Source of the DNA: a virus
Taxonomy: Duplodnaviria; Heunggongvirae; Uroviricota; Caudoviricetes
IMG/VR virus record: IMGVR_UViG_3300037313_001331
Reading direction: 5' to 3' (one strand)
DNA length: 41,684 bases
In this document: positions 1 to 39,669 of the stretch, in pieces
Layout of the letters: each line of letters opens with the position of its first letter
Numbering within the stretch: the first letter of the stretch is position 1
Translations under genes and position numbers: made by a program
Notes under the pieces: generated by a model
Seen by the model: only the letters and a program-made list of their open reading frames with translations
What the model was told of the DNA's origin: nothing
The model's database searches: none

Positions 1-146
1 CGCTCGATCTCTGCCGCGCTGAAGTGCGTGACCATCGCGAGCGTCGTGATGAGCTGGATGTAGCGCGGGTCGCCCCGTAGGCCGGCCTGGATGGCGGTGT
101 GTGCCATCTTGGCCAGCTCTTCGTCGGAGTACTTCGGTTGCGTCAC
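1..146 (-). CDS. Hypothetical protein, truncated by window edge (MTQPKYSDEELAKMAHTAIQAG...)
   Basis: Translated by hand. The GTG at 146-144 overlaps the ligase TGA (GTGA coupling) and the frame stays open to position 1. Confidence 0.5.
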   Translation of the reverse strand, partial: MTQPKYSDEELAKMAHTAIQAGLRGDPRYIQLITTLAMVTHFSAAEIE

Positions 147-1561
147 GCCGGGACCGCTTCGCGCTTGACGCCCGCGGCAGCGTCGAACTGGGCGATCACC
201 TGCTCCAGCGAGTCAGCGACCGTCTTGTCCGTGCGGAACGTTGCCTCGACCAGGCGCGGCAGGAACAGCGAGTGCAGCGGGTTGCTCTCGGACGGCTTGA
301 GCACCAGGTTGGCACGCACGGCGTAGATCCGCTTCAGGAAGCTCTCCGGGTCCTTCTCGATGGCGTCACGCATGGCCTCGTTCTTCACGGTCACGTCGAC
401 CTCCAGGCCACCGCAGCTGGTGCGCATCTTGATGGAGCCCGGCCGGCCTTCGTTCTTGGTGTCGGGCTTGCCCGGCACGATCTCGACGGCCACCAGGTCC
501 ACGTCGACCTCCAGCTTCAGCTTCACCTGCTCCTTGCTCGTGCCGTCCTTCCAGATCGCCGTGGGCAGCTTGCAGATCGTGCCTTCCTTGCCCTGCTGGA
601 GCATTTCGGCACAGTGCTGCATGGCTTCGGCCTTCGAGCGCACGATCCGGGTGTCGATCACGCGGGCCAGGCCGTTCTTGGCCGTCAGGCCCGCTGCCGC
701 GAACTGCTTCAGCAGCAGCGCCAGACGGGTCTTGTAGGGCACCTCGTGCTTGCCCTTGGCCTGGACTGCTGCGAGCGGGATCTGATCCCAGGCGTAGAAG
801 CGCACCTCTTCGCCCGCTTCGAGTTCACCGCCCGATGCCAAGCGGTTCAGCACCCCGTTGCTCTGTTCGCGGGGCAGCAGCTCTCCGTTCAGGAACACGA
901 GCAGTTCGCCATGCGTCTGGGTGTCGACGTTGAGCACGCGCTCCAGCTCCGCCTCCAACGCCCACATGCAGCCCAGGGGATATGGCGTCCCCTGGCGAGT
1001 CGTCATGCTGATCACGCCGGCCTTCGACTTGTTGACGTTGACGAACGAGCCGTCTGCCTTCTCCTGGCTGATCATGCCCTGCTCCCACGGCCAGCTGGCG
1101 AAGTCCGACTTGTCCGGCAGGCTGCAGCGCATGTAGGGGTACTCGGGGAACGTTCCGGGCGCGACGCGGTTCACGGTGCCCTCGGTGAAGCCCGCCCGCA
1201 TGTCCTTCAGCAGGATGCGGCGGAACAACGTCGAGCTGGACTCATCCAGCAGGTTGACCATCTTCTGGACCTGTTCGCGTGCCAGGTTGCCGCTGATGGT
1301 TCCGTCGGCCAGGCCGGACAGCAGCGCCCAGGCGAAGGGCTCGGCCAATGAGTTCGCGCCCGGCGCAAGACCCGGGGTCTTGTTGGGCACGTCGCCGAAG
1401 CCGTAGTTCTTGAACCGGTCGTACGCGGCGATGACCACCTTGGCGAAGAGCGGGAGACCCATGCCCTGCTTGACCAGCGCCTCCTTTTCCTTCTTCGAGC
1501 TGGTCGCGGCAATGGCTTCGACGAGCTTGAGCACGCCGTCCGGGGTGTTGGTGTAGAACAT
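143..1561 (-). CDS. ATP-dependent DNA ligase
   Basis: 472 aa with adenylation motif EKADG, EGTICK motif IV and a C-terminal OB-like region (LFLPRLVEATFRTDK). Strong GAGGAGG RBS. Confidence 0.9.
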   Translation of the reverse strand: MFYTNTPDGVLKLVEAIAATSSKKEKEALVKQGMGLPLFAKVVIAAYDRFKNYGFGDVPNKTPGLAPGANSLAEPFAWALLSGLADGTISGNLAREQVQKMVNLLDESSSTLFRRILLKDMRAGFTEGTVNRVAPGTFPEYPYMRCSLPDKSDFASWPWEQGMISQEKADGSFVNVNKSKAGVISMTTRQGTPYPLGCMWALEAELERVLNVDTQTHGELLVFLNGELLPREQSNGVLNRLASGGELEAGEEVRFYAWDQIPLAAVQAKGKHEVPYKTRLALLLKQFAAAGLTAKNGLARVIDTRIVRSKAEAMQHCAEMLQQGKEGTICKLPTAIWKDGTSKEQVKLKLEVDVDLVAVEIVPGKPDTKNEGRPGSIKMRTSCGGLEVDVTVKNEAMRDAIEKDPESFLKRIYAVRANLVLKPSESNPLHSLFLPRLVEATFRTDKTVADSLEQVIAQFDAAAGVKREAVPA

Positions 1562-2072: not shown

Positions 2073-2567
2073 TCACCACGAACCGCGGCCCGGTTCAAGC
2101 AGCTCCATCAACTCGGCGTCGAGTTCATCGACGACCGTCGTCAACGGGATGGGTTCATCATCGGTGGGCGGGCTCGGCTCGTCATCGGACAGTGAAATGC
2201 CGGCGGCGATCAGGCCCATGGCCGAGAGGATTGCATGCGCGTGCGTCGCCCCGAAGTTCTCCTTCAGGTACCGCGCCAACATGTCCAGACCGCGCAGGTC
2301 CAGGTCCTTGCGGCCATGAAACCGATAGTCGCCCTTCGTCTTTGCAGCGATGGCCTCGTCATAGCCAACCCCCAGAACCTTGACATTGCCGCCCAGCACG
2401 GGGCGTGCGAACGCCTCGGTTCCGGAGAGCTTGCCGTAGTGGGCAACAACGACGCGCCGCCCAGCGGATGCACCCCCGGTGTCGACGCCCGCAATCTGGA
2501 AGACTTGATAGAAGGCGTTCCGACTCGTGGTGTTGGTCAGCCAGGATCGTTGGATGGAAAATTGCAT
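2073..2567 (-). CDS. WGR-like domain protein
   Basis: Start at MQFSIQ (AAGGGG RBS). The pattern AFYQVFQI...VVAHYGK...KTKGDY resembles the WGR domain, with YGK in place of WGR. Confidence 0.55.
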   Translation of the reverse strand: MQFSIQRSWLTNTTSRNAFYQVFQIAGVDTGGASAGRRVVVAHYGKLSGTEAFARPVLGGNVKVLGVGYDEAIAAKTKGDYRFHGRKDLDLRGLDMLARYLKENFGATHAHAILSAMGLIAAGISLSDDEPSPPTDDEPIPLTTVVDELDAELMELLEPGRGSW

Positions 2568-2628
2568 AGGTCCCCTTGGGGCAACAAAATCATTATTGGG
2601 AGTCTCGCTCTCCCATGTCGGATCTGGT

Positions 2629-3780
2629 CTACGCCCCTTCGGCTGCCCGCATGCGGGACGCTTCGGCAGCAAGGCGGATTGCGGTCAGTCGGTCAAGCGT
2701 CGTGGCCTGGAAAATCCACTGACGCACCAGCTCGGGCGGCACCGGTTCGTTGTCAGGCCCCTGCGCTGGGTCGTAGCCCATAGGGATGCGTGCAATGCGC
2801 ACGGTGAGCCCCAGCGCCAGCAGCTGCAGACCTGCCTTCACGGCCTCTGCCAGCGCCTTGCCCTCGCCGTCCCACATGATCGTGACGACGCGCAGCCCGC
2901 GCGTCTTCAGCTCGGCGAACTTCGCGATCTGCCCGTCCGGCCCGGCGCTGAGGTGCATGCCGAACGTCGCCACCGGCAGCATGCCCTCGCAGCTGGCGGC
3001 GCCCGTAATGGCCTGGTAGATGCCGATGGCGTCGAAGGCGCCCTCCCCCACCACGGCATGCGTGTGTCGCCCCTGCTCGAAGGTGTGACCGTTGTACAGG
3101 TGGCTTCCGGCCACCGCGTACCCCACGGGGAACATGTACTTCGGCTCCTGGGTGCCCGTGATGTCCCGACCCTGGAACGACACCAGCCGGCCGTCGAGAT
3201 CGGCGATAGGGATGATCACGCGCCGGTCGAAGTTCATCCACTTCTGGGTGCCGTCCGCCAGCTTGTAGCCCCACCAGCCGCCCTTGCAGAAGGACAGGTT
3301 GAACCACTGCGCCGTCTCGACGGTCACGCCACGGTTCTGCAGGTACGCCAGGTTGCGCCCATCCGGGGACGGGATGGGCTTCAGCTTGCTGGGCAGCTCC
3401 AGATCCGCCTTCACAAGCTCCACGCGCTCGCGCTTGGGCATCCAGCCCTGGTCTTCTGCCGTCGCTTTGATGTGCGCGTCCAGCTCGCCGCCCGACAGGC
3501 CGCTCACGGCCCGAATGAGCTTGAAGCGGTTGAACTTGAATCCGCACGCGCCGTGAAAGCAGTTGCCCAGCCCGGTCTCGGCGTTGATGTAGGTCTTGCG
3601 CCCACCTTCGCCACACACCGGGCACTCGTGCAGGTTCAGCTGCAGGCCGCGCGTCCCGTAGGACGGCGTGAAGTCGATGCCGGCACGCTCCAGGTAGTGC
3701 TCGACATCGATCTTGGCCAGGGCGCTGTCCAGCTCCTCGCGACGCGGATCAGCGCCGCGGGAACAGACGAACATCGTCAT
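2629..3780 (-). CDS. DNA primase (Zn finger plus TOPRIM)
   Basis: CPVC...CFHGAC zinc finger, RVIIPI, FQGR, TOPRIM motifs VGEGAFD and MWDGE. Confidence 0.85.
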   Translation of the reverse strand: MTMFVCSRGADPRREELDSALAKIDVEHYLERAGIDFTPSYGTRGLQLNLHECPVCGEGGRKTYINAETGLGNCFHGACGFKFNRFKLIRAVSGLSGGELDAHIKATAEDQGWMPKRERVELVKADLELPSKLKPIPSPDGRNLAYLQNRGVTVETAQWFNLSFCKGGWWGYKLADGTQKWMNFDRRVIIPIADLDGRLVSFQGRDITGTQEPKYMFPVGYAVAGSHLYNGHTFEQGRHTHAVVGEGAFDAIGIYQAITGAASCEGMLPVATFGMHLSAGPDGQIAKFAELKTRGLRVVTIMWDGEGKALAEAVKAGLQLLALGLTVRIARIPMGYDPAQGPDNEPVPPELVRQWIFQATTLDRLTAIRLAAEASRMRAAEGA

Positions 3781-3782
3781 GA

Positions 3783-4103
3783 TCAGCGGCTCTTCAACAG
3801 CCCCAGGGCGATCTGCTCTTCACGTGAGAGCTTCGCCAACGCCTTGAGCTTCAGCTCCTCCCGCGCCTTCTTCTCTTTCTGGTCGAGGTCGACAGGATCA
3901 GGGTGCTTCAGAACGTAGACATCGGCGCCGAGGGTGATGGCCAGCTCCTTCGCCACCCTGCCCGGGCCGCCGTACCAGCCCTTGCCCTTCGAGTGCTGTT
4001 CAGCGACAGATGCGTGCGAGAAGTATCCGACCAACTCGTCAGGTGCACGGCGGTCGTCCCCGCCGCCGTACACCGCATAGATCTCCAGAAAACCAGCGTC
4101 CAT
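3783..4103 (-). CDS. Hypothetical protein
   Basis: 106-aa ORF coupled to dnaB (TGATG overlap) and filling the gap to the primase. Confidence 0.65.
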   Translation of the reverse strand: MDAGFLEIYAVYGGGDDRRAPDELVGYFSHASVAEQHSKGKGWYGGPGRVAKELAITLGADVYVLKHPDPVDLDQKEKKAREELKLKALAKLSREEQIALGLLKSR

Positions 4104-5458
4104 CAGTCCTCTCCCACAATTGCCTTGATGAACTTCGCGCGATCAATGTCCTGTTCGATGCGAAGCGTGAAGCCGGAGCGGCCATTGCGGACGGCGGCGA
4201 AGTAGATCCGCGCCTGCCCCATCTTGACCTCTTCTTCTGACCGGTTGATCGAGAGAATGATGTCTGCGATGCGGACCTTGTTGATGTCCTCTGCGATGTC
4301 CGTCATGGTCGCGACGGCCTTCTTTGCGCCCTCGCGATTCGTCTGCGTGGCGGTCAGCAGCGCGAAGCCCTCTTGCATGGCCAGGCCGCGCAAGTTCACG
4401 TAGACACTCTTGCTGTTCTCCTGCACGTTGTCCGTGACCCGCTCCGGGGCCATCAGGTCCGCGTAGTCGATGATCACGAGGTCGAACGTGATGCCGTTCG
4501 CCTTGTAGTGCTCGACCAGGCGACGCAGGTCGCTCGGGCGCATCGTGCCCGTCGGGTACTCGTGAATGATGAAGGGGGCCGCCTTCGCCATGAAGGCGTC
4601 GACCTTCTCCTGCACCTCGTTCGGATGCGCGCCCAGCTCGAACATGGCCCGGTCGGCGATGTTCGCGTCCATGCGCTCAGCGATGATCCCCGCGGCCACC
4701 TCAAGGGTGACGTAGAGCACGCGGTAGCCGGCGGCGATGGCGTTGATGCCGAAGGTGATCATTGCCATGGACTTGCCCGCCTTGGGGCCGCCCATCAGCA
4801 CGGACATTTCGCGCCGGCCCCAGCCCTTGTGGTACAGGTACTCGTCCAGGGCCGGGTAGCCCGTGGTGATGCCTGTGGGCGGCCGGATGCCCGCTGCACG
4901 GTCCTTGCGGTCCTGTGTGCGCAGCTTCGCCATTTCGGCGTAGTCGTACGCGCCCGTGTTGAGCACCACGCCGGTGTCGCCCGCCTTGCGGATCAGCGCG
5001 ACCGCGGCGTCGACATCGCGCTTCTCGACCAGCGTGACCGAGTCGAAGATGGCCTTGGTGACGGCCTGAATGCGCGCGAAGGTCGCGACCTGGTCGGCCA
5101 CGTACTCGCGGTCGGACACGTCCGTCTCGTAGATCGATGGGATGATCGCGATGGCCATCCTGGCAAGCTCTGCCGGGAGCACCTTCTCGCGAATCGCGTC
5201 CTTCATCACGGACGCGAGCGTCGTCTTGTCGCCAGGCGCCTTCTTGTACTTTGCGAAATACCCCGACACCACCCGCACGAGAGCGGAATGCCCCGCGTTC
5301 TCGAAGAACTCGGGGCGAATCAGTCCGTCGGTGACCTGAGCGAACTGGGTGTCACGGATCAACAGGGCCGTGATCTTTTTCTGAAAGTCGGCGTCGAACT
5401 CATAGGTCGGCACCACTTCCTCTTCGACCGCGGCCGGCACTGCTGCCGACACGGCCAT
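4103..5458 (-). CDS. dnaB: DnaB-like replicative helicase (SF4)
   Basis: Walker A GGPKAGKS, Walker B DLVIIDYADL, TATQTNR, and an N-terminal DnaB-like helical domain. Confidence 0.92.
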   Translation of the reverse strand: MAVSAAVPAAVEEEVVPTYEFDADFQKKITALLIRDTQFAQVTDGLIRPEFFENAGHSALVRVVSGYFAKYKKAPGDKTTLASVMKDAIREKVLPAELARMAIAIIPSIYETDVSDREYVADQVATFARIQAVTKAIFDSVTLVEKRDVDAAVALIRKAGDTGVVLNTGAYDYAEMAKLRTQDRKDRAAGIRPPTGITTGYPALDEYLYHKGWGRREMSVLMGGPKAGKSMAMITFGINAIAAGYRVLYVTLEVAAGIIAERMDANIADRAMFELGAHPNEVQEKVDAFMAKAAPFIIHEYPTGTMRPSDLRRLVEHYKANGITFDLVIIDYADLMAPERVTDNVQENSKSVYVNLRGLAMQEGFALLTATQTNREGAKKAVATMTDIAEDINKVRIADIILSINRSEEEVKMGQARIYFAAVRNGRSGFTLRIEQDIDRAKFIKAIVGED

Positions 5459-5461
5459 GAA

Positions 5462-5779
5462 TCAGCTCCCCTTGTGCAGAATCACCGATTCGATGCCGTG
5501 CTTGTAGTAGATGCCTTCGAGGCCCATGAACTCGCCCTCGTCGTGGCGCAGCGTCACCGTGAACTTGTCACGGCGCACGATCACACCGCGCACATCGTCA
5601 CTGTTCATCAGGCGCAGCGTGACGGGCGTCGCGTTCATCTGCGCATGCTCCAGGTCACGGTCGTGGCCCTTCGCGACGAACGGCTTCTTCGCAGGCCGCT
5701 GCACGCGGCCAGCCTCGTATTGCGGTGCAACCACGGGGCGGTTCAGATGGGTGATGTTCGACGGAATGGTGTCGCTCAC
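5462..5779 (-). CDS. hfq: Hfq-like Sm-fold RNA-binding protein
   Basis: Start moved to GTG at 5779 (AGGAG RBS). AKG..PVTLRLMNSDDVRGVIVRRDKFTVTL..IYYKHGIESV aligns by eye with Hfq Sm1/Sm2 (AKG..[36 protein letters not shown]). Confidence 0.75.
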   Translation of the reverse strand: MSDTIPSNITHLNRPVVAPQYEAGRVQRPAKKPFVAKGHDRDLEHAQMNATPVTLRLMNSDDVRGVIVRRDKFTVTLRHDEGEFMGLEGIYYKHGIESVILHKGS

Positions 5780-5828
5780 AAAGACTCCTGGATGATGAAA
5801 ATCGGGCAAGTCGCCCGGTGACCGCTTC

Positions 5829-5834
5829 ATTATA
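5829..5834 (-). promoter_or_regulatory. Sigma70-type -10 hexamer TATAAT upstream of the hfq-like/dnaB genes
   Basis: Perfect TATAAT on the minus strand, 5 bp downstream of palindrome copy 2, which occupies the spacer and -35 position. Confidence 0.5.
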
Positions 5835-5839
5835 GGTAC

Positions 5840-5857
5840 TCAGTCAGTGCTGACTGA
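5840..5857. promoter_or_regulatory. 18-bp palindromic motif, copy 2 (TCAGTCAG-TG-CTGACTGA)
   Basis: Perfect 8-bp arms, intergenic. Confidence 0.85.
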
Positions 5858-5858
5858 T

Positions 5859-6542
5859 TCATCCAAGCCGGGAAGCGGCTGCTTCTGCGAGCGCGGCCAC
5901 TTCTGCGCCCCATGCAGACTCCGCGAACGCGGCAGAAAAGTAGCCCTCCTTCAGCATGCGACCGATCAGGCCGGGGCGGGCGTGCGGCACCCGGGCGTCG
6001 ATCTGCATGCGGATGTACTCGCGGTGTCGAGCGACTGCCGGCGTCTCGGGAGCGCCAGGCCTGAACTGCTCGGCCTGGCTGAATTGCAGCTGGCGCTCGA
6101 ATCGCTCCTGCCACGCGTCGTTCACATCCAGCTCGAACTCTTCGCCGTACAGCTGGTTGGGTCGCGGGAAGCGGCGGAAGTAGCGCTCCAACGATCTGCG
6201 GGCGGCGAAGTCGAGCACGAACGGATAGGGCAGCCCCATTCGGTCTGCCGCCTGCCGGGCGAGCCACATCGAGGTCATGTCGCGGCTCGCGAAGATGTCG
6301 TCGGGACTGAATGCCCTGGCGTCCTCCGCGCTGCGCATGTCGATGCATCGCTCGTAGTACGCCCGGGTTGCCTCCACATAGTGGTGCGCGTAGCAGTAGG
6401 TGGCCGTCACCGGGTGCATGTGCTGGTAGTCGAACCACCTCAACTCAGTCAGGCTCGCCTCGATCTCGCGGTGCGCGGGGTCGATCCGGAGCCCTCGCAC
6501 CTCCAGGTCAACCGCACTCAAGTCATCGCCGTAGAACCTCAT
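5859..6542 (-). CDS. Conserved phage hypothetical protein
   Basis: 227 aa. The motifs RWFDYQHMHP, MWLARQAADR and FPRPNQL resemble an SSU5-type core protein from recall. Confidence 0.7.
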   Translation of the reverse strand: MRFYGDDLSAVDLEVRGLRIDPAHREIEASLTELRWFDYQHMHPVTATYCYAHHYVEATRAYYERCIDMRSAEDARAFSPDDIFASRDMTSMWLARQAADRMGLPYPFVLDFAARRSLERYFRRFPRPNQLYGEEFELDVNDAWQERFERQLQFSQAEQFRPGAPETPAVARHREYIRMQIDARVPHARPGLIGRMLKEGYFSAAFAESAWGAEVAALAEAAASRLG

Positions 6543-6631
6543 TCGCCATCGCCCCTTTTAAGTTGTTCTCTTCCCTTTCACTGTAGGGAGTGATTAAACC
6601 TAGGGACCAGCAGAAATCGCTAATTCCCGCC

Positions 6632-7366
6632 TCAGTGACGGGTCCCGGAGGGAGAGGAAGCCCGGTACGTGCTGAGTATGGCCTTGCACAGGCGCGACCG
6701 CATCACATCCTCCAGCTCGAAGCGCATGATCGCCACACCATCGATGTCCTTGCAGCGGCGGACCGCGTCTGCCAGGCCCGACTCTTCCACGTCGACCTGG
6801 TCGGTGTCGCCGCACACGATCACCTTGCAATTCTCGCCAATGCGGGTCAGGAACATCTTCATCTGCTCGGGCGACACGTTCTGCGCCTCATCGAGGATCA
6901 CCCAGCAGTCGTTGAAGGTCTCGCCGCGCATGAACGCGAGCGGGGACGGCTCGATCTTCCCGTTCTTCAGCGCGCAGTCGTAAGCACCGCGGCCCAAGCG
7001 CTCGACGAAGACCTTCTCCAGCGGCTTCAGGTACGGAGCGAACTTCTCCTCGATCTCGCCCGGCAGGAAGCCGAGGGACTCGCCGGCTTCGACCGCGGGG
7101 CGCGTGATGATGACCTGGGTGGTCCGCTTGTCCACGAGCGCATCGGCGGCCAGCGCCGTGGGCATGTAGGTCTTGCCCGTGCCGGCCGGGCCGATGGCGA
7201 AGATCAGCTCGCTGGTCTGGATGATGTTGCGGTAAACGGCCTGCGCTTCTGTGCGCGGCTCGATGCGCGGTCGCTGACCGCTTCGGTGTTGAGTGACGAC
7301 TGAGTCTGGCTCGTAGGCTGGAGACTTCGTTTTTGTGCGTTGTTCTTTGTCGCTTCTTCTTGCCAT
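6632..7366 (-). CDS. phoH: PhoH-like ATPase
   Basis: GPAGTGKT, TRPAVEAGESLGFLPG, AFMRGETF, ILDEAQN, KMFLTRIGE, GDTDQVD. Confidence 0.93.
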   Translation of the reverse strand: MARRSDKEQRTKTKSPAYEPDSVVTQHRSGQRPRIEPRTEAQAVYRNIIQTSELIFAIGPAGTGKTYMPTALAADALVDKRTTQVIITRPAVEAGESLGFLPGEIEEKFAPYLKPLEKVFVERLGRGAYDCALKNGKIEPSPLAFMRGETFNDCWVILDEAQNVSPEQMKMFLTRIGENCKVIVCGDTDQVDVEESGLADAVRRCKDIDGVAIMRFELEDVMRSRLCKAILSTYRASSPSGTRH

Positions 7367-7401
7367 GGTGGCCTTCGTCAGTCGTCAGATCGAGAATAGC
7401 A

Positions 7402-7419
7402 TGACTCAGTGCTGACTGA
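7402..7419. promoter_or_regulatory. 18-bp palindromic motif, copy 3 (TGACTCAG-TG-CTGACTGA)
   Basis: Lies in the divergent gap between phoH and the PEP-CTERM gene. Confidence 0.8.
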
Positions 7420-7531
7420 CTATCTCATTTTTTTCAGGCACACGCACGACCCGTTCGCAAGCCCCTCCCCCTCAAGTGAGGGGCCTCATCGTCTCGCGCA
7501 AGCGCTAGGCTCGCGACTTTTGGGAGACAAC

Positions 7532-8137
7532 ATGCGCACACTTTTTGTGGCCGCCATCGTCGCGGCAAGCGGAGCCGTGAACGCGGCCGACATCAGCATC
7601 GCCGTCAGCAACGTTCAGACCGCGCTGGTTGACCTAGCTCCGGCCGACGGCATTGACCCTACTCTCTCGTTACCTTTAGGCGACCTTGCAGCCTTCGCAA
7701 CGGGCTTCAGCACCCTCGACACGTCTATGCCTGTGTTCTCGCTTCTGGGCTCGATTGGGGCCCATTCCGAGGCGCGTGTGGGGTTCGACTTCAGCTTGTC
7801 GCTGACTGTGCCAAACAACGAAGACGCGTATGCGATTTTTCGACTCGACTCCGCCTGTCTGGGGTCGTGCAAATACCCGGGCTGGGTGGGGTTAAACACT
7901 GGCCTGCTGCCTGACACGGTCGGCCCGGGATTCACCACGCGCACTCGGGACTATCACGCCGAGCTGGTGCTGACGAACGACCTCGACACCGATGGCGCCT
8001 TCAGCGTGATGTACACCCACTACTTCTTCATGGAGAAAGGCTCCGTACCGTCGCCGGTGCCGGAGCCTTCCACCTACCTGCTGATGGCAGCCGGCTTGGC
8101 CGCCATCTCTTTCGTCAGACGAAGCAGCCGATGCTAG
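7532..8137 (+). CDS. PEP-CTERM sorting-domain (exosortase substrate) surface protein
   Basis: Start moved to MRTLFVAAIVAASGAVNA (signal peptide, GGGAGA RBS). C-terminus VPEPSTYLLMAAGLAAISFVRRSSRC gives PEP, a TM helix and a basic tail. Confidence 0.9.
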   Translation: MRTLFVAAIVAASGAVNAADISIAVSNVQTALVDLAPADGIDPTLSLPLGDLAAFATGFSTLDTSMPVFSLLGSIGAHSEARVGFDFSLSLTVPNNEDAYAIFRLDSACLGSCKYPGWVGLNTGLLPDTVGPGFTTRTRDYHAELVLTNDLDTDGAFSVMYTHYFFMEKGSVPSPVPEPSTYLLMAAGLAAISFVRRSSRC

Positions 8138-12729: not shown

Positions 12730-12747
12730 TGTGTCAGCGCTGACTGA
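12730..12747. promoter_or_regulatory. 18-bp palindromic motif, copy 5 (TGTGTCAG-CG-CTGACTGA)
   Basis: Intergenic, 4 bp beyond the phosphoesterase stop codon. Confidence 0.85.
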
Positions 12748-15752: not shown

Positions 15753-15770
15753 TCAGTCAGTGCTGACTGA
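15753..15770. promoter_or_regulatory. 18-bp palindromic motif, copy 6 (TCAGTCAG-TG-CTGACTGA), with minus-strand TATAAT at 15775-15770 overlapping its edge
   Basis: Intergenic, upstream of the lysis cassette. Confidence 0.85.
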
Positions 15771-17229: not shown

Positions 17230-17525
17230 ACGGCGAACACCATCACCTTTGATGTGCGAGCCAGCGGGTAGCCCGTGGTGCGCCTGGTCAGCGTGAGAGA
17301 TGGCGGGCTTCCCTGCGTCACAGTCAGTGAATGCCCTCCGGCACCCAGAACCATTGCCCGGATAACACGGCCGCTCAGGTTGGGATAGGTTGTGCCATCG
17401 AACGTGTAGGTCTGAGTCGTGTTGCCTCCCAGCGTATAGGTGCCGACGTAGACCCCTCCGTAGGTTCTATCACTGTTGAGGGTCATGACGCCGCTTGAGT
17501 TCCAGACTCGAATTCCATAGCTCAC
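17226..17525 (-). CDS. Small tail-associated protein
   Basis: 99 aa beginning MSYGIRVWNSSG. ATGA-coupled on both sides. Confidence 0.6.
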   Translation of the reverse strand: MSYGIRVWNSSGVMTLNSDRTYGGVYVGTYTLGGNTTQTYTFDGTTYPNLSGRVIRAMVLGAGGHSLTVTQGSPPSLTLTRRTTGYPLARTSKVMVFAV

Positions 17526-20500
17526 AGCGAAAGATCTCCCAGCTGAACACGCTTCACATTGGATGAGTCGTAGACTTTCATGCCACCGGAGTACAGCTCA
17601 AAACCCGCCCCTGTGCCGCCCGACCGGTTCGTGAGGAAGCCGATGGTCGCCGTGATGGCGCTCAGCTGGTTCACGTTCAGTCGGTCCGCGCCCACCGAGC
17701 CACGCACCAGCAGGTTGCCGTCAATCAACGCCGCGATGGTGAGCCAGCTGCCGCTGGAGTAGTAACGCGTCTGGGCGAAGGTTCCCGCGGTGGTGTACAG
17801 GGTGACCTCGTCGAAGTTCACCGGCGACAGACCGAGCGCGCTGATGGCAGCATTTGCCTCTGTGTCGCTCCACGCAGCGCTACCAACAGCGCGGCTCGTG
17901 CGCGTGGCACCGCGCGCACCGTTCGTCCCGTTCGTCCCGTTCGTCCCGTTCGCGCCGGCAGGGCCTTGCGGACCTTGAGGTCCCTGGGCACCAGTCGCAC
18001 CGGTTGCCCCTTGGTCGCCCTTCGCCCCCATCGGGCCGAACTGAATCGACTTCGCGCCATCACCCTGCTTGACGAAACTGCTGTCCAGGTAGAAGCGGAT
18101 GTTCGCGGCGACGCCCACGCTGCGCCACAGCACGCCGTTCTTGTAGTAGCGGACGGTATTGTTGTCGTAGGTGATCAGGAAGACGGTGTTCGCGTCGTAG
18201 GTGCCGCCGCTGTACCCTCCCCCGCCGCTCTCGTAGATGTAGCAGGTGCCGTTCTCGTAGACGTACCAGCAGTAGTCGATAGAGCCGTAGGAATAGTCAG
18301 ATGCCGGGTCCGTGTTCAGACCCAGCATGAAGTAGCTCGCGCCCGACTTCGGCTGGAAGGAGCACCACGCGCCGTTGGTGTAGCTCTCCTGGCTCATCAC
18401 CTGGGTGTTCCAGTCCCACGTGCCGTCCGTCTTCGTGCAGCTGGGCCCGTTCACCGACATGCCAGTGGACGGCACGAGCGTGAACAACCCCGTGCCCTGC
18501 TGGCCAGCGCGGCTCTTGGAAATGGACAGGCGCTTCGTCACCGACGTGTAACCCGACCGGGCAGCGGTGATGTCGACGTAGCCGCCATCCTCTGTAGCGC
18601 TCATCGAGTCGATGGTGACGGTTGCCGCGGAGATGGTGCTGCCCACCCCGCTGCTGTTGGACCGGGTGATGATCCAGTTCAGCGTGTCGTCTACGCCCGC
18701 CAGCATGACCGTCATGGTGGTGCTCGCACCCGCGTAGGTGGTCACGGTCCCCGTCGAATCGGCCGGCAGAGTGATGGAATCGTTCGACAGCGTCGCAGTG
18801 ACCACCTTCACCACGTCGAGAGAGTGCGGGCGCCAGGCGTTCAGCACCTCACCCGCCTCGACCATGACCTGGTCGATGTGGATCTCGTCGTTGGCAACAG
18901 CCGGCGTTCCTGCGCTGATGTACAGACGACCATTGCCCTCAACGGTGCTTCCCCACTTGATACGGAACGCATAGCGCTGCCAAGAGGTCGTCAGGGCCGG
19001 ATTCGCAAGCACATCCAGGGTCGCCGGCCCTGCATTCCAGGCAAGGTACATGGAAGTCATGGACGCGCCATTGACCTTCTTGGCCCAAAAGCTCACCACG
19101 TAGGTGGCGCCCGGCATCCATCCACCCTCCACACCTCCAATCCCAGTATCGAGATTGAAGGCGGTCAAAATCCCGAAGGTGCTGGTGGTCGTTGCAAGCG
19201 CCTTGAGGCCGTAGCCGGAGCCTCCATCAACACCAGTCGGCCGCGTGAATGCAACCGAGATGCTGGCATTGTTGTACTGGTTCCAGCCTTGTGGCCGCCC
19301 ACCCGTGCCGGCAACCACGTCCTCCATGTTGCTGTTGCGAACAAGGTTCCCCGAGCCACCATTCAGGCCGTTGACACCGTTGACACCGTTGGTTCCGTTG
19401 GTGCCGTTGGTTCCGTTGGTGCCGTTCGCACCCGCCGCACCCTGCGCCCCCTTGGCACCCATCGGACCCAGGCGTGCACCGAGGACCTGCGAGTTCTGCT
19501 GGTACAACGAGCAGTCGAAGAAGAACTTGCGGCCGGGGGTCGAGTTGGTGCTGTACACCACGGTACCGTCGACCATGTAGCGGACGATGTCGTTGTCGTA
19601 GGTGATGGCCAGCACCGACGCCGTGTTGAACGATGCCGTGATCTCAGTCCGATAGCTGCCCAGCTCGTAGACCTGCAGCTGTCCGGACGATGCGTAGTAG
19701 AACGCGTAGTCGATCTGATGGAAGTCGGTCGACGGGCCCGGCGCCGAGCAAAGCCCTGCCATCACGTTGCCCGGTGAGGCGAACCGGAAGTTGACGTAGG
19801 CACCACCGGTGTATGCCTCCGCGCTGTACGCGCCGCCACCCCAGGTGGTGTCGCTGGCGGTCTTGATGACCTGGTCACCCTTCACCGTCGAGCCCGTGCG
19901 GGCCGTCAGAGTCAGCTGGCCCGGGAAGGGCTGCACAGGCACAGTCGCGAAACCAGGGTCGGCCTGGATGCCCATCACGTCTTCCGCGACGACCCAGACC
20001 CGGCGCGTGCCAACGGTCTCGAAGGTCATCGTGAACGACTGGGCGCTGCCGGCGATCACGGCATAGTCGGGCAGCGAACTCCAGGGCGTGGAAGTGTCCC
20101 CCACGGGGCTGACCCGAATGATGTGACGCTTGAGCGGCTGCGTGGTGCGGCAGTTGTTCCAACGCAGGGTGACTGAGCCGCCCAGCACCTCGGGAACCTG
20201 GAATGCCACGGTCGCCGGCTTCTGCACGACGATGTTCAGCACCGCATCGGTGGCCGACGTGACGCCCGGGATGTTGTGCCGCGCTCGAAAGGTCGTGGTG
20301 CCCAGCGGGAGGAACGGCAGCGGCGGCGTCTTCAGCAGCTTGCCCTCGAACACCGCGGTGCCGGTGTTCCAGCTACTGCCGCCTTGCTTCACCGTGGTGC
20401 TGAGCCAATCCTTGTCCGGCGGCGCGTCCCACTTCAGCTCGATCCCGAGGTCGGTGACCGTGTAGCCGAAGTTTTGAACGTCCCCAGGCGCCGTGACCTT

Positions 20501-23500
20501 GCCGATCACGGTGTAGCTGGTTTCAACCATCGCAGAGGCGCGCTCACTACGGTCTCGTGCGAAGACGCGGAACTTCAGCGTGTCGCCTTGGTTTCCGTCG
20601 ACCGTCACCGCGCCCACATCGCGACCCACGTTCATGAACGGGCCACCGTTTCGGGACAGGAGCACCTCAGACGACCGGTAGGTCGGCTGGGTCGAATGGA
20701 AGGCGATGGTGATCTGCGGCTTCGTGATGGTGCCGAAGAGCACCTGCTTCTCGGTCACTCCGTCGATCACCGGAACGTTGACGACCGTCTGCTCGATGGC
20801 CGAGTAGTTGATCTCCGGCACCGTGCCGGCCGGGTCGTAGACGGCCTCGTTGTATTCCAGGGCGACGATGTCCCGGCGGTACTCGTGAGAGCCGCCGATC
20901 TTGCGAATGCGGAAGGGCTTCGCGATCTTGGCAGTCTCGCCGAACATCCACTTCGCGAACTGCGGGGGTGCGCCAGGCAGCGTGGTCTGCAGCGTCAGTT
21001 GCGTGGTCTCGAAGCCAGCTGAGTCACTGTCCGCATACGACATCGGCTGTGCGTCAGCCCACACCTTCGCGTCACTCAGGCCCGGCGCGACATTGGCATC
21101 CTGCATCGAGCTGGAGATCGTGCCGATGATGCGGTGGTTCGAGTTCGGCGTGAAGCCAACCCAGCCCGTCTGGTTGTCGTCGTACTGCCACTGGCCGCCT
21201 TGCTTCCGGGCGAACGCGAACGGCCGCATGATCCCGCCCTGAACATTGAAGGTGCCAGCGCCGTAGGTCTGCGAGCCATCCCACACGATCCAACCATCGA
21301 ACGGTCCCATGTTCGAGACCAGCGGGCCATTGGGCACGGTCTTGGTCACACCGTCGACCTTGATCGAACCCGGCACATCGGCCGGGGTCGACCCGGTGAA
21401 GCCGTGGATGTACGCCTCGTTGTAGTTCGCGGGGCCCGAAAAATCGATGGCGTTCTTCTTGATCGCGAGCGTGGTGGACTCGGCGACGCCGTTGGTGACG
21501 CGGCGAGTCTCCAGCGCGTTGGTGTCCCAGAGCGTCCAGTTTGCGCCGGCGTTGATGCCGGTGCCGTCCTCGACAGTCACACCCCAGTCGGCGCCGGACT
21601 GGAACACGCCCAGGACCTCGACCTCGATGCTGGAGCCCACCTTCAGGCGCTTGATGTTGCTCTGACCGGCGAAGCCGTTCAAAACGACGTTGTTGCCCGC
21701 GCGACTCTTCACCGTGCCGGCGTAGCGCGCAACGGCATCGAAGTGCACGAGCGCTTCGTAGGTCTTGCCCGGCTTGAGCGTCACCGGCCGATCCAGGTTC
21801 AGGATCGTGCCCGTCGAGTCCTTTTCAAGGCGACCCGCATAGCCCCACTGGGGCATGTCGTGCTGAATCAGCACCACGTCGCCCACCGTGCAGGCGATGG
21901 CCTCGATGGGCGCCGAGAATTCCACCGTCCGAAGGATGTAGCGGTTCAGCCGCAGCATCAGCTCGGTCTCGTCCCAGGCGCGTTGCGCGCTGGTGATCCC
22001 CATGATGTTGACGGTCGCGGTGCGCTGCGGCGTGCCGGCGGCAATTGCCGTCTTGTCGGCATTGCGCAGCGTGCGGGTCTTGTAGTCGTTGGCCGCGTCG
22101 GCGAAGCTGATCTCGATCTCGTTGGCGCGGTCGCTCATGGAGAGCCAGGTCTCCTTGAACGTGCCGGCGATCATGTTCGCCACCGAGAACATCATCACGG
22201 GGTCTTCTTTGCGCTCGATAGCGACCGTGTAGCGCGTGCCCGTCTGCAGCAGCTGGGCGCGACCGCACCGGGTGACCTGCTGCACAGCGTCCCAGACATT
22301 CGTCTGGGTGTCGAAGATGCCGTTGAACTCCAGCTTGTTGGCGTCGCACCAGGCGGCCCACTCCTTCCACCGGACCAGATCAATGCGCGACATGGGCGCC
22401 CCGCCCCCGTAGCGCTTGTTGGTCAGGATGTCCAGCCCGATCCACGCGGGATTGCTCGACGCGCGGGTCTTCCAGCTGCTGGTCGCCTCGTCCCACACCG
22501 TGATCACGCGCCCGCCATTCAGGTGCGTGACGGTCGGCATGCTTGACAGCTGCTCAGTGAGCTTGATCTTCAGGCCCAGCACGGCCGTGTTGCGGTAGCC
22601 GACATCGTCCAGCGTGATCTCATTGATGTCGCTGACGTAGACGGCGTCGGACACCTGCGCGCTGGTGGACTTTTCGTTGTTGCGCTTGAAGCGCAGCTCA
22701 TAGATGCCGGGAGGAAGCTTCTCGCAGAAGAGGCTGCGGCGGTAGGCCGTCCGCTTCGACGAGTTCATCTTGAACGTACCGGCGGTCTCGTAGGTCGGGA
22801 CCGTGCGCATCGACCCCACGACCGGGCCGAGATCCCCGCTCACGGGCGGGTAGGCATAGATCACGCCGTTGCTGACGTACTCGTTGCCGGTGGGCACGTA
22901 GTCGGTCTCGTTCCCGTTCGGGAAGCCGTTGATGTCGAGTTCCTGGACCTTGTTGTAGAAGGGCTGCTGCGTGCTGCCGGGCACCACGTTGGTCGGCTGC
23001 ATGCTGATCCACGGCACCGTGCCCTGCTTCCGGTACTCGACCGTCAGGTTCACCGTGACCTCGTTGTAGTCGCCCTTGTCGTTGACCGAGAACAGGCCAT
23101 TGGGCGCAACGAAGTCGATCCGCACCTGGTCGACGATGGTCGACGTGGTGTAGAACTTGTAGCTGGTCGTCATCTCCTGGTTGAAGGAGGTCGGCACGAT
23201 GGTGTCGGCGAACCACTTCGGCGGCTGCTGCGTGCCGGTGCCCAGAAGCGTGGTCTCGACCTCCACGTCGCTGTAGGCGGACAGCGGCTGGTCGTTGACC
23301 AGGATGTCCTTGATGAACGCAATGGGGCCTTCCCCACAGTTCATCAGCATGTACAGGTACTGCGTGTCGCCGTCGTTGACGACGTAGTTGTCGATGATGT
23401 TGCCGCCGTAGCGGAAGGTGCCGTAGGGCACAGGCACGGGCACACCCTCGGCGCTCGTGTTCTTGGCGCCGTCGATGCCGTAGGTCGCAGACTCCTGCCC

Positions 23501-23950
23501 CGTGGTTGCACCAGTGGGCGGCTTGGGCGGCGGCAGCAGCGCGTTGACCAGCATCGCGCCGGCCACGCCGGCGACCACCGTCCAGGCAGCTGCGCTCAGG
23601 CCCAAAACGCCCGCGCCGAACATGCCAGGACCCATCAGGGCGCCGATCTCGGGCGCGACGACCATCACCGCGATCATGGCCACCATGCGCAGGATGGACT
23701 TGCCATCGTCGCCGCCGGCCGGCCGCGGGCACTGGGTCACCCAGTCACCGTTCTCCACAGTGACGGTGGCCATCTCGTCGTGATCGACCACGCGGCCATT
23801 CAGCGTGTACACCAGCTCGACTTGGCCAGGCACGTCCGGGAACAGCTCCGCCAGCGTCGGCGCCCCATCGAAGTCGATGGTGTCGCGGGAACAGTCGCGG
23901 GGGTCCAGGGGATTGCGAATCCGGACCAGGTTCAGCGTTTTTGTTTTCAT
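17522..23950 (-). CDS. Tail tip / host-specificity protein (lambda J-like), about 2142 aa
   Basis: Start moved to MKTKTLNL (ATGA overlap with the NlpC gene stop). N-terminal I-like region, SNPAWIGLDILTN...FNGIFD J core, FN3-like repeats, lectin/CBM-like modules and collagen-like linkers. Confidence 0.9.
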   Translation of the reverse strand: MKTKTLNLVRIRNPLDPRDCSRDTIDFDGAPTLAELFPDVPGQVELVYTLNGRVVDHDEMATVTVENGDWVTQCPRPAGGDDGKSILRMVAMIAVMVVAPEIGALMGPGMFGAGVLGLSAAAWTVVAGVAGAMLVNALLPPPKPPTGATTGQESATYGIDGAKNTSAEGVPVPVPYGTFRYGGNIIDNYVVNDGDTQYLYMLMNCGEGPIAFIKDILVNDQPLSAYSDVEVETTLLGTGTQQPPKWFADTIVPTSFNQEMTTSYKFYTTSTIVDQVRIDFVAPNGLFSVNDKGDYNEVTVNLTVEYRKQGTVPWISMQPTNVVPGSTQQPFYNKVQELDINGFPNGNETDYVPTGNEYVSNGVIYAYPPVSGDLGPVVGSMRTVPTYETAGTFKMNSSKRTAYRRSLFCEKLPPGIYELRFKRNNEKSTSAQVSDAVYVSDINEITLDDVGYRNTAVLGLKIKLTEQLSSMPTVTHLNGGRVITVWDEATSSWKTRASSNPAWIGLDILTNKRYGGGAPMSRIDLVRWKEWAAWCDANKLEFNGIFDTQTNVWDAVQQVTRCGRAQLLQTGTRYTVAIERKEDPVMMFSVANMIAGTFKETWLSMSDRANEIEISFADAANDYKTRTLRNADKTAIAAGTPQRTATVNIMGITSAQRAWDETELMLRLNRYILRTVEFSAPIEAIACTVGDVVLIQHDMPQWGYAGRLEKDSTGTILNLDRPVTLKPGKTYEALVHFDAVARYAGTVKSRAGNNVVLNGFAGQSNIKRLKVGSSIEVEVLGVFQSGADWGVTVEDGTGINAGANWTLWDTNALETRRVTNGVAESTTLAIKKNAIDFSGPANYNEAYIHGFTGSTPADVPGSIKVDGVTKTVPNGPLVSNMGPFDGWIVWDGSQTYGAGTFNVQGGIMRPFAFARKQGGQWQYDDNQTGWVGFTPNSNHRIIGTISSSMQDANVAPGLSDAKVWADAQPMSYADSDSAGFETTQLTLQTTLPGAPPQFAKWMFGETAKIAKPFRIRKIGGSHEYRRDIVALEYNEAVYDPAGTVPEINYSAIEQTVVNVPVIDGVTEKQVLFGTITKPQITIAFHSTQPTYRSSEVLLSRNGGPFMNVGRDVGAVTVDGNQGDTLKFRVFARDRSERASAMVETSYTVIGKVTAPGDVQNFGYTVTDLGIELKWDAPPDKDWLSTTVKQGGSSWNTGTAVFEGKLLKTPPLPFLPLGTTTFRARHNIPGVTSATDAVLNIVVQKPATVAFQVPEVLGGSVTLRWNNCRTTQPLKRHIIRVSPVGDTSTPWSSLPDYAVIAGSAQSFTMTFETVGTRRVWVVAEDVMGIQADPGFATVPVQPFPGQLTLTARTGSTVKGDQVIKTASDTTWGGGAYSAEAYTGGAYVNFRFASPGNVMAGLCSAPGPSTDFHQIDYAFYYASSGQLQVYELGSYRTEITASFNTASVLAITYDNDIVRYMVDGTVVYSTNSTPGRKFFFDCSLYQQNSQVLGARLGPMGAKGAQGAAGANGTNGTNGTNGTNGVNGVNGLNGGSGNLVRNSNMEDVVAGTGGRPQGWNQYNNASISVAFTRPTGVDGGSGYGLKALATTTSTFGILTAFNLDTGIGGVEGGWMPGATYVVSFWAKKVNGASMTSMYLAWNAGPATLDVLANPALTTSWQRYAFRIKWGSTVEGNGRLYISAGTPAVANDEIHIDQVMVEAGEVLNAWRPHSLDVVKVVTATLSNDSITLPADSTGTVTTYAGASTTMTVMLAGVDDTLNWIITRSNSSGVGSTISAATVTIDSMSATEDGGYVDITAARSGYTSVTKRLSISKSRAGQQGTGLFTLVPSTGMSVNGPSCTKTDGTWDWNTQVMSQESYTNGAWCSFQPKSGASYFMLGLNTDPASDYSYGSIDYCWYVYENGTCYIYESGGGGYSGGTYDANTVFLITYDNNTVRYYKNGVLWRSVGVAANIRFYLDSSFVKQGDGAKSIQFGPMGAKGDQGATGATGAQGPQGPQGPAGANGTNGTNGTNGARGATRTSRAVGSAAWSDTEANAAISALGLSPVNFDEVTLYTTAGTFAQTRYYSSGSWLTIAALIDGNLLVRGSVGADRLNVNQLSAITATIGFLTNRSGGTGAGFELYSGGMKVYDSSNVKRVQLGDLSL
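17919..17953. repeat. 9-bp tandem repeat (CCGTTCGTC x3 plus a partial copy) encoding (NGT)n in the tail tip protein
   Basis: Read directly from the sequence. Confidence 0.9.
19368..19430. repeat. 9-bp imperfect tandem repeat (CCGTTNNNN x7) encoding GANGTNGTNGTNGTNGVNGVNG
   Basis: Read directly from the sequence. Confidence 0.9.
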
Positions 23951-24384
23951 TGTGGGAACCGGTAGAAGCCCGTGATGCGTCGCTGCCAGTCTTCGACGCG
24001 CTCGACGGTGACGCCGCCTGACGCCTCCCAGGCATGGATCATTCGGCCGTGGGGAAGCAGGAACGCCACGTGCGACACGAGGGTCTGCATCTGGCCGTTG
24101 TGCCGGGTGCGCACGCGGATCGTTGCGACGGCGCCCGGGCCGGGCTTGCAGGGCGTCCAAAACGACACCTGCTCATCGATCAGCGACGCAATGTGCTGGT
24201 GGACGGTCGGGCTGCTGTAGTCGGGCACCTTCATGGCGCATCGACGTGCCATTTCCGCGACCAGGCCGTAGCAGTCGTAGACATCTGGGCCCCGCCCCTT
24301 CCACTGGAACGGCACGCCGACCAGGTCTGCGAAAGGAGCGGTGACGTTGGGCGCCGGAGCCAGCTCAGGAATAGCGATAGCCAT
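23947..24384 (-). CDS. NlpC/P60 tail assembly protein (K-like)
   Basis: GVPFQWKGRGPDVYDCYGL catalytic Cys motif, followed by HVAF and IHA. Confidence 0.85.
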   Translation of the reverse strand: MAIAIPELAPAPNVTAPFADLVGVPFQWKGRGPDVYDCYGLVAEMARRCAMKVPDYSSPTVHQHIASLIDEQVSFWTPCKPGPGAVATIRVRTRHNGQMQTLVSHVAFLLPHGRMIHAWEASGGVTVERVEDWQRRITGFYRFPQ

Positions 24385-25023: not shown

Positions 25024-25041
25024 TCAGTCAGTGCTGACTGA
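25024..25041. promoter_or_regulatory. 18-bp palindromic motif, copy 7 (TCAGTCAG-TG-CTGACTGA)
   Basis: Intergenic, directly after the distal-tail gene stop. The flanks extend the symmetry (AA...TT). Confidence 0.85.
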
Positions 25042-30768: not shown

Positions 30769-30786
30769 TCAGTCAGTGGTGACTGA
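30769..30786. promoter_or_regulatory. 18-bp palindromic motif, copy 9 (TCAGTCAG-TG-GTGACTGA)
   Basis: Intergenic, upstream of the tail tube gene. Confidence 0.85.
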
Positions 30787-34409: not shown

Positions 34410-34427
34410 TGTGTCAGTACTGACTGA
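34410..34427. promoter_or_regulatory. 18-bp palindromic motif, copy 11 (TGTGTCAG-TA-CTGACTGA)
   Basis: Intergenic between the scaffold and capsid genes. Confidence 0.85.
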
Positions 34428-36971: not shown

Positions 36972-36989
36972 TGTGTCAGTACTGACTGA
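36972..36989. promoter_or_regulatory. 18-bp palindromic motif, copy 12 (TGTGTCAG-TA-CTGACTGA)
   Basis: Intergenic between terL and portal. Confidence 0.85.
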
Positions 36990-39083: not shown

Positions 39084-39101
39084 TCAATCAGCGCTGACTT
39101 A
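39084..39101. promoter_or_regulatory. 18-bp palindromic motif, copy 13 (TCAATCAG-CG-CTGACTTA)
   Basis: In the noncoding leader of the packaging genes. Confidence 0.75.
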
Positions 39102-39272: not shown

Positions 39273-39669
39273 ACACTTTCAGGTCCCGAAAGGACGGAAT
39301 CTCCACCTCGAAAGTGCTTACAGGAAGCCCCGGGAGGACCGACTTTTCACCTTCCACCAGCTCAGCACGGGCTGAGTCGATGTCCCCTTTTTCGGGAGTC
39401 GGAACAGGCCCGCGGGGGTCCAGCGCCAGCATCCCGGCTGGCGTGATGCGGTAGCAGATTCGATGGCGCCCGCGCCGCATCACGGTCTCCGTCTTCTCCA
39501 GCACCTTCTTCGCGATGCAGGCCCGGATCGTGAACTGGGCGCTTTGCTTGGACGGCTGCCAGCTGAGTCGGTCCAGCAGCTGGTCGAAGTCGATGTGGCC
39601 TTCGCCCGCGGGATTGCCCGCCAGGGCGAGCCGGAGCACTTCAACCTGGTACGCGGTCAGTCCCCTCAT
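39271..39669 (-). CDS. Winged helix-turn-helix DNA-binding protein
   Basis: LTAYQVEVL...DFDQLLDRL...SAQFTIRACIAKKVLEK...YRITPAG fits a wHTH plus wing pattern. Confidence 0.75.
   Translation of the reverse strand: MRGLTAYQVEVLRLALAGNPAGEGHIDFDQLLDRLSWQPSKQSAQFTIRACIAKKVLEKTETVMRRGRHRICYRITPAGMLALDPRGPVPTPEKGDIDSARAELVEGEKSVLPGLPVSTFEVEIPSFRDLKV

Follow-up and report, generated by a model that had tools for sequence, protein, structure and literature searches.

Hfq is among the best-studied bacterial RNA regulators, and virus-encoded copies of it are almost unexplored. Here we describe a gene for an Hfq-like protein (positions 5462-5779, minus strand) in a stretch of 41,684 nucleotides (nt) of phage DNA (Caudoviricetes; IMG/VR record IMGVR_UViG_3300037313_001331). 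This whole stretch, called the window below, belongs to a siphophage of about 110 kb (110,897-bp JGI record). The public runs that contain this DNA are soil and rhizosphere metagenomes, all of them DNA runs, with no RNA run listed. The protein is a genuine, divergent member of the Hfq domain family, and its gene stands directly ahead of the gene for a DnaB-family replicative helicase. We favour the reading, at a probability of about 0.5, that the phage uses this protein as its own post-transcriptional RNA binder on phage messages, with the leader of the replication operon as the first candidate target.

The first point of reference is bacterial Hfq (PF17209; E. coli, S. aureus, P. aeruginosa, C. 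crescentus). The phage protein shares with it the Sm fold, the glycine and aspartate of Sm1 (G65, D71), the Sm2 signature Y-K-H-x-I, and the residues K72, F73, K93 and H94. Unlike bacterial Hfq, it carries an invariant histidine in place of Q8, has neither the distal aromatic residues nor the rim arginine patch, and is extended by a basic N-terminal arm of about 38 amino acids (aa) instead of a C-terminal tail. The loop between strands 3 and 4 is longer by 5 residues, and the gene lies in a replication operon rather than in the hfq-hflX context.

Among phages, homologues occur in the Nickievirus phages of Pseudomonas syringae (nickie gp117 YP_009620715, Nican01 XAI70047.1, phiK7B1, ZY21 and hairong). 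These proteins belong to the same family (profile E 1.9e-10) and their genes occupy the same slot, between that of a phrog_2500 protein and dnaB, but they are shorter, with a shorter arm. The original prediction, made by a model from the DNA letters alone, had called phage copies much less studied than the bacterial protein. They are less obscure than this implied, since the Nican01 homologue is annotated 'RNA-binding protein Hfq'; in the literature we found no functional study or discussion of the Nickievirus homologues. A second precedent, the Hfq3 paralogue on Bacillus anthracis plasmid pXO1, had been cited in the prediction and is real: like the phage gene it sits on a mobile element beside a host Hfq (PMC5348863). 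However, the Hfq3 phenotype needs the distal face, which is not conserved in the phage protein, and Hfq3 is neither linked to a helicase nor carried by a phage (PMC5348863).

Sm-like proteins are common among uncharacterised phage proteins. GoF, MotB.1 and Frd.2 of T4 are small phage proteins with a predicted Sm-like fold (PMC12152347). These T4 proteins are known as Sm-like from structure prediction only, whereas the window protein is an Hfq detectable by sequence, and architecture and lineage differ. With respect to gene position, one further comparison is apt.

Some helicase loaders are encoded next to phage or bacterial DnaB, as for lambda P, DnaC/DnaI, DciA and T4 gp59. The Hfq-like protein shares with them the position alone (immediately upstream of the helicase, co-expressed); it has no sequence or fold similarity to them and contains no AAA+ domain. 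The fold and the family are therefore already known, with one cultured homologue already annotated, but the design of this subfamily, together with its fixed and translationally coupled place ahead of DnaB, we found described nowhere. This is a large, sequence-coherent phage family which has kept one RNA surface, lost two and gained a basic arm, and whose fixed partner is the replicative helicase. It would represent a natural separation-of-function variant for what the proximal face does alone. It also raises the question as to why a lineage of ~110-kb soil phages and phage-plasmids co-translates an Sm ring with DnaB when sister lineages do not. Since cultured Nickievirus phages of P. syringae carry homologues, this question is testable at the bench now.

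A divergent member of the Hfq domain family

The gene and the signals around it are as follows.

5462-5779, minus strand: hfq-like coding sequence, 105 aa, GTG start, TGA stop at 5464-5462
5666-5779, minus strand: N-terminal arm, residues 1-38; basic, Pro/Arg-rich; AlphaFold2 per-residue confidence (pLDDT) 58-88, no helix or strand
5477-5665, minus strand: Sm/Hfq core, residues 39-101; one helix (39-48), then five strands; Pfam match over residues 40-101
5785-5789, minus strand: Shine-Dalgarno sequence AGGAG, 5 nt before the GTG; GGAG kept here in relatives
5465-5473, minus strand: dnaB ribosome-binding site GGGGAG, within the last hfq codons

The original prediction had proposed an Hfq-like protein at this position, and had named profile or structure searches as a check. 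We ran both, and they agree with it. The Pfam model PF17209 matches residues 40-101 with 31.5 bits (cut-off 27; E 1.3e-7). With phmmer against the Protein Data Bank (PDB), 14 of the 17 matches listed up to E 10, the top four included, are Hfq (best: S. aureus 1kq1, E 6.5e-4). A profile built from 149 relatives aligns to canonical betaproteobacterial Hfq with an hhalign probability of 96.5%. The AlphaFold2 model, computed from the same 149-row alignment, consists of a helix (39-48) and five strands (52-57, 63-70, 74-79, 88-92 and 96-101), with a pLDDT of 96-97 throughout the core. In a Foldseek search of the PDB with this model all top matches were Hfq (probability 1.0; root-mean-square deviation 1.2-1.8 Å). 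The best was Caulobacter Hfq 6gwk (TMt 0.90, 1.3 Å), and core identity to the solved Hfq chains was 24-32%. The Sm1 glycine and aspartate correspond to G65 and D71, and the Sm2 motif [YF]-K-H-[AG]-I to Y92-K93-H94-G95-I96.

Despite this agreement, the protein is not an orthologue of the Hfq chaperone, since the NCBIfam equivalog model TIGR02383 scores 32.7 bits, below its cut-off of 61.7. Among Pfam and NCBIfam matches at E 1e-3, Hfq families alone were returned for the window protein, and no loader family. PHROGs gave a single weak match to an unannotated family (E 0.11). Judged from the AlphaFold2 model and the Foldseek matches, the fold is that of an Sm protein and not the OB fold of the single-stranded DNA-binding protein (SSB) family PF00436. 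In PADLOC, neither the Hfq-like protein nor the product of its upstream neighbour orf227 was matched.

The predicted 105-aa open reading frame (ORF) is present on the minus strand, with its GTG start at 5779-5777 and AGGAG (5789-5785) 5 nt ahead of it. In the ORF list, and in public gene calls, the same frame is read from an upstream ATG (5462-5830), which would give 122 aa. We rejected this longer form and favour the GTG start, because homologues begin with M-S-x-D-T-I-P-S-N-[VI]-[ST]-H, which matches the GTG form, and because the GC content at third codon positions (GC3) is 0.84 in the 105-codon part, close to the 0.79-0.91 of the adjoining genes, but 0.53 in the 17 extra codons. Furthermore, the ATG of the 122-aa form overlaps a TATAAT that is kept as DNA among relatives.

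One retained and two missing RNA-binding surfaces

To describe the family we relied on an exhaustive profile search over 1.84 billion cluster representatives, which returned 137 representatives at E<=1e-10 and 530 at E<=1e-3, although the weaker matches among the 530 may include ordinary Hfq. Residue counts were taken from an alignment of the best 149 members, the window protein included, in which identity to the query falls as low as 23%. PF17209 matches 146 of these 149. PHROGs places family members in the unannotated phrog_19781, phrog_13793 and phrog_5258 only. A megablast search with positions 2500-8000 and a tblastn search with the protein against 50,697 phage records gave no match, and cultured homologues were reached through DnaB and the nickie protein only. 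Correspondence to the S. aureus and E. coli proteins was read from HMMER (phmmer) and hhalign alignments.

The proximal uridine pocket is, from these alignments, the most conserved feature of the family. Its residues in S. aureus/E. coli Hfq, namely Q8, K41/Q41, Y42/F42, K57/56 and H58/57, correspond to H39, K72, F73, K93 and H94. G38, H39 and K93 are invariant across the 149 members, so that the replacement of Q8 by histidine holds for the whole family; K37, D40, L43, Q47, G65, R70, D71, T74, H94 and I96 are at least 90% conserved (for example G65 in 146, D71 in 148, K93 in 149, H94 in 141 and Q47 in 139). Position 73 is aromatic (F, Y or W) in every member. Nickie gp117, with 89 aa, departs from this pattern in having serine at the H94 position, and its Pfam Hfq score of 23.4 bits falls below the cut-off. 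RNA binding by the pocket is predicted, and very probably the window protein is truly an Sm protein of the Hfq family, with single-stranded nucleic acid bound at its proximal face.

The Hfq signature which the original prediction had read in the C-terminal part is in register for G.I, D.F and YKH.I. Its A-K-G element is not: H39-D40 align with Hfq Q8-D9, and the phage K-G-H-D is consequently offset by 3 residues from the A-K-G of E. coli. The helix that carries QDPFL in E. coli had been described as replaced. This is true of the sequence but not of the model, in which helix 39-48 is kept, and D40 and L43 are nearly invariant.

The other two surfaces of Hfq have no equivalent. At the distal face, the adenine-binding residues Y25 and I30 of E. 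coli (F25 and F30 of S. aureus) are without family counterpart; the family has T, V, I or R at position 56 and E or D at position 61 (R56 and D61 in the window protein). At the rim, R16 is replaced by the near-invariant Q47, and R17 and R19 have no basic counterpart, with D, Y, F or N at family position 48 and G, K, R or N at position 50. The suggestion of altered specificity is thereby sharpened: the proximal pocket is kept, with Q8 changed to histidine, and the distal aromatics and rim arginines are gone family-wide. Since the rim patch (R16, R17, R19) is required for annealing (PMC3753642), canonical matchmaking between small RNAs (sRNAs) and mRNAs by the phage protein appears unlikely.

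The Pro/Arg-rich N-terminal extension noted in the original prediction is also a property of the whole family. Every member has one, with a median of 38 aa (range 16-76), rich in R, P, A and K and ending in a conserved K-K-x-F-V-A-K-G motif. The net charge of the arm is positive in all members (median +4), compared with a median of -1 for the core; at the C-terminus there is only a short tail. Homology places the residue ahead of the helix on the proximal side of the ring, and therefore six basic arms should surround the pocket.

This residue pattern bears on two alternatives. The first is that the gene is a passenger without current role, or a wrongly called ORF. It is missing from some related phages, and its Hfq-like core diverges faster than DnaB (identity 0.47 vs 0.61). 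However, the three invariant columns and the eleven further columns conserved at 90% or more, across 149 representatives as distant as 23% identity, are not what such a gene would leave, and neither are the gene-like GC3, the conserved ribosome-binding site and the confident structure model. We regard this explanation as highly improbable.

The second alternative is that the protein serves host take-over, either by competing for the U-rich 3' tails of sRNAs or by forming mixed rings with host Hfq, and would so disable Hfq-dependent stress and envelope regulation during infection. The retained proximal pocket is the part of Hfq that holds sRNA 3' ends, and a protein without rim and distal sites would bind RNAs but not anneal them, like a sponge. 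The Sm2 strand at the subunit interface is conserved (Y-K-H-[AG]-I-E), and the plasmid-borne Hfq3 is toxic when overexpressed in B. anthracis (PMC5348863). On the other hand, Hfq3 toxicity needed the distal face that is missing here, and the core identity of 24-32% to solved Hfq, together with the different core charge, makes mixed rings doubtful. Such a factor would also more usually be found among early or accessory genes and in variable positions, whereas hfq is locked in the replication operon. In sum we consider a role in host take-over unlikely.

Place in the replication operon and coupling to dnaB

Genes in the window are nearly all on the minus strand: terminase, portal, capsid, tape measure and fibres, then a block running from PhoH to ligase. 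The order in this block is PhoH, orf227, hfq, dnaB, orf106, primase, two unknowns and ligase.

6632-7366, minus strand: PhoH-like ATPase (PF02562, E 5e-73)
5859-6542, minus strand: orf227 (227 aa, phrog_2500, all-alpha), conserved upstream neighbour
4103-5458, minus strand: DnaB-family replicative helicase, 451 aa (PF03796, E 1.3e-16; phrog_19, E 1.6e-77)
3783-4103, minus strand: orf106 (phrog_5370), between dnaB and primase; its start overlaps the dnaB stop
2629-3780, minus strand: DnaG-type primase (PF08275; phrog_47)
143-1561, minus strand: ATP-dependent DNA ligase, last gene of the block in the window (PF01068; phrog_114, E 1.3e-89)

As the original prediction had stated, hfq lies 3 nt from dnaB (stop codon 5464-5462, ATG 5458-5456) and heads the helicase-primase genes. 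That prediction had also proposed a survey of hfq-dnaB synteny in related phages, which we carried out on about 19 distinct metagenomic loci, three deliberately chosen distant members and two GTDB contigs. The order PhoH, orf227-like, Hfq, DnaB, primase was kept in all of them wherever the downstream gene could be identified; orf106 was found in some relatives only. In 15 relatives the distance from the hfq stop to the dnaB start ranged from -4 to +17 nt, with several ATGA or TGATG overlaps. Translation of hfq is by this arrangement coupled to that of dnaB, and the two proteins are therefore probably made in comparable amounts. Pairwise distances for Hfq and DnaB correlate (Mantel rho 0.66, a value reached in 0 of 2000 permutations), which argues that hfq has been inherited vertically with the block.

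These observations invite a third alternative, namely that the protein is a replisome accessory, with DnaB, single-stranded DNA or RNA primers as the ligands of its Sm ring. Such a ring might assist in loading or tethering the helicase, or deal with an RNA-DNA hybrid at the start of replication, with coupling serving to match the amounts of the two rings. In favour of this idea, every locus has hfq at the same place just ahead of dnaB, with translation of the two coupled; the operon that hfq opens is purely replicative, and profile searches revealed no recognisable helicase loader in the block. The basic arms and central pocket could bind single-stranded DNA, and E. coli Hfq does bind DNA (PMC4963395; the PDB entry 5uk7 is among the Foldseek matches). 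The absence of a PF00436 SSB from five complete related genomes points in the same direction. In contrast, conservation is highest at the residues with which canonical Hfq reads uridine, and no longer or fused family forms, Hfq-helicase fusions included, were found in the family, which is weak evidence.

Relatives without hfq also speak against an accessory function. By DnaB (40-45% identity), the nearest cultured phages are Rhizobium V1VFA-S and RHEph10, the Pseudomonas syringae Nickievirus, Stenotrophomonas phages, and SSU5-type E. coli and Klebsiella phage-plasmids. Searching the whole genomes of V1VFA-S and of E. coli phage Cyrano with the family profile gave no hfq copy. Both have the orthologous DnaB in the same block, with the orf227 homologue followed directly by DnaB. 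Since these Rhizobium and E. coli relatives do without the gene, it is dispensable for helicase function in the wider group. The SSB argument fails on the same phages: none of the five complete genomes (G001, G002, V1VFA-S, nickie and Cyrano) contains a PF00436 SSB, hfq-bearing or not, so that its absence does not track hfq. We accordingly rejected the idea that the Hfq-like protein is a stand-in for a missing SSB; this phage group either uses host SSB or carries an unrecognised one.

Taken together, a replisome accessory is conceivable but rather improbable. Its most specific form is a shade less probable again: an Sm hexamer made one-to-one with the DnaB hexamer, whose proximal pocket and six basic arms would assist the helicase in getting onto DNA by gripping single-stranded DNA, an RNA primer or an origin R-loop. 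If true, it would mean that the Hfq fold is used in DNA replication, which we found described nowhere, and would add a new kind of helicase partner.

One relative of the block comes from a bacterial assembly. In L033 (NZ_JAUCCV010000002.1, 103584-113778) a counterpart of the whole PhoH-to-ligase block lies in a 704-kb contig of a Castellaniella metagenome-assembled genome, and a canonical hfq-hflX locus lies on another contig of the same genome. Either the block is integrated there, or assembly or binning has produced a chimera. For this relative a betaproteobacterial host is hinted at, and the presence of a family member alongside canonical Hfq is also consistent with the host take-over discussed above.

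The product of orf227 has 111 homologues, none with a functional name (those with a name are called 'hypothetical protein'), encoded upstream of hfq or, in hfq-less phages, of dnaB. Its model is all-alpha and very confident (pLDDT 96.4), but no convincing fold match was found in the PDB (Foldseek E>1; best VIA-align Z 5.1, below noise for helical proteins), and these scores allow no assignment as a helicase loader. The protein could be an initiator or loader of replication that has escaped recognition.

The leader of the replication operon as a candidate target

Upstream of hfq lie three elements.

5840-5857, palindromic, no strand assigned: 18-bp palindrome (8-2-8) after the orf227 stop; one of 9 intergenic copies; probably an operator
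5829-5834, minus strand: TATAAT, sigma-70-type -10 element, conserved in relatives
5793-5817, minus strand: leader hairpin (6-bp GC-rich stem, 3-nt loop) with an A-TTTT-CATCA tract; resembles an intrinsic terminator

The perfect TATAAT (5834-5829) and the palindrome noted in the original prediction are both present, so that hfq heads its block behind a promoter-like -10 and a palindrome. The palindrome has the sequence TCAGTCAG-CA-CTGACTGA, with variants, and gives 17 strand-matches at 9 sites in the window versus 0.04 expected by chance. Beside the copy at hfq, it occurs at 7402-7419, 12730-12747, 15753-15770, 25024-25041, 30769-30786, 34410-34427, 36972-36989 and 39084-39101. Each copy precedes a gene block by 20-45 nt (hfq, PhoH, fibre, minor tail, major tail, capsid, portal), and directly before most of them stands a -10-like hexamer whose last base is the first T of the palindrome. 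This arrangement suggests a phage-wide operator, or a hairpin at transcript 5' ends. Relatives retain a GTCA..TGAC palindrome downstream of the orf227 stop. Since no copy lies between hfq and ligase, the replication genes can be regarded as one block headed by hfq.

Among relatives, C-TATAAT is found in 10 of 11 aligned leaders (TATACT in the eleventh) and in 4 of 4 further relatives, within otherwise variable sequence. A hairpin followed by a T-run lies 6-11 nt past the -10 in 10 of 13 relatives, as opposed to 0.26 of 13 in shuffled sequences, and none of 500 shuffles reached 10. The stems themselves vary (CGGGCG/TGCCCG, GGTC/GACC, GGGCA/TGCCC). A search of 5300-6100 against Rfam gave no match. 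The leader hairpin could terminate the upstream transcript, act as an attenuator, or stabilise the message at its 5' end, with a U-rich site by the ribosome-binding site.

With these elements the reading that we favour can be set out. The Hfq-like protein would form an Sm-type ring, as the conserved Sm2 interface strand suggests. Of the three surfaces of Hfq, the ring would retain the proximal pocket, the site for U-rich single strands and 3' ends, and a basic disordered arm from each subunit, leaving the ring on the proximal side, would take the place of the rim arginines and the distal site. Its gene is the first cistron of the replication operon, which runs from hfq and dnaB through orf106, primase and two unknowns to ligase and follows a -10 element of host type and the palindrome, the probable phage-wide operator. 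The protein would then act post-transcriptionally on phage transcripts as the phage's own single-strand RNA binder, rather than as a matchmaker for sRNA and mRNA. A typical ligand of the proximal face of Hfq is a hairpin with a U-rich single strand beside it. The most concrete candidate target would therefore be the protein's own leader, with a 5'-proximal GC hairpin and a U-tract beside the ribosome-binding site, and by binding to it the protein would adjust how stable the helicase-primase message is or how well it is translated. T4 offers a loose precedent for an Sm-like phage protein with an effect on helicase mRNA: GoF(D25Y) stabilises RNA bearing the 5' leader of gene 41, which encodes the replicative helicase (PMC12152347).

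Several observations weigh against regulation of phage messages through this leader. The hairpins are not unusually stable compared with shuffles (z about 0), so that their positional conservation alone is significant, and they could simply terminate the upstream PhoH-orf227 transcript. Distant members (L004, L013, L016, L033, L035 and L036) keep hfq without the TATAAT-hairpin leader, so that autoregulation through the leader cannot be the general role of the family. The hfq-less phage V1VFA-S has a -10-like element before dnaB itself; the promoter therefore belongs to the operon and not to hfq. Finally, the conserved synteny is the heritage of one collinear lineage and not a repeated independent association.

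Four other genes in the window deserve mention. The only plus-strand gene of the region (7409-8137) encodes a protein of 242 aa, and its PEP-CTERM sorting motif (PF07589, E 3.7e-7) points to an exosortase in the host. An ORF of 2212 aa (17522-24160) closely follows the minor-tail and tape-measure genes on the same minus strand. Beyond the packaging genes, the minus strand carries a phrog_886 gene annotated 'ABC transporter ATP-binding subunit' (39666-40598, E 8e-90) and the start of a gene for an HslV-family peptidase (41282-41683, phrog_1040).

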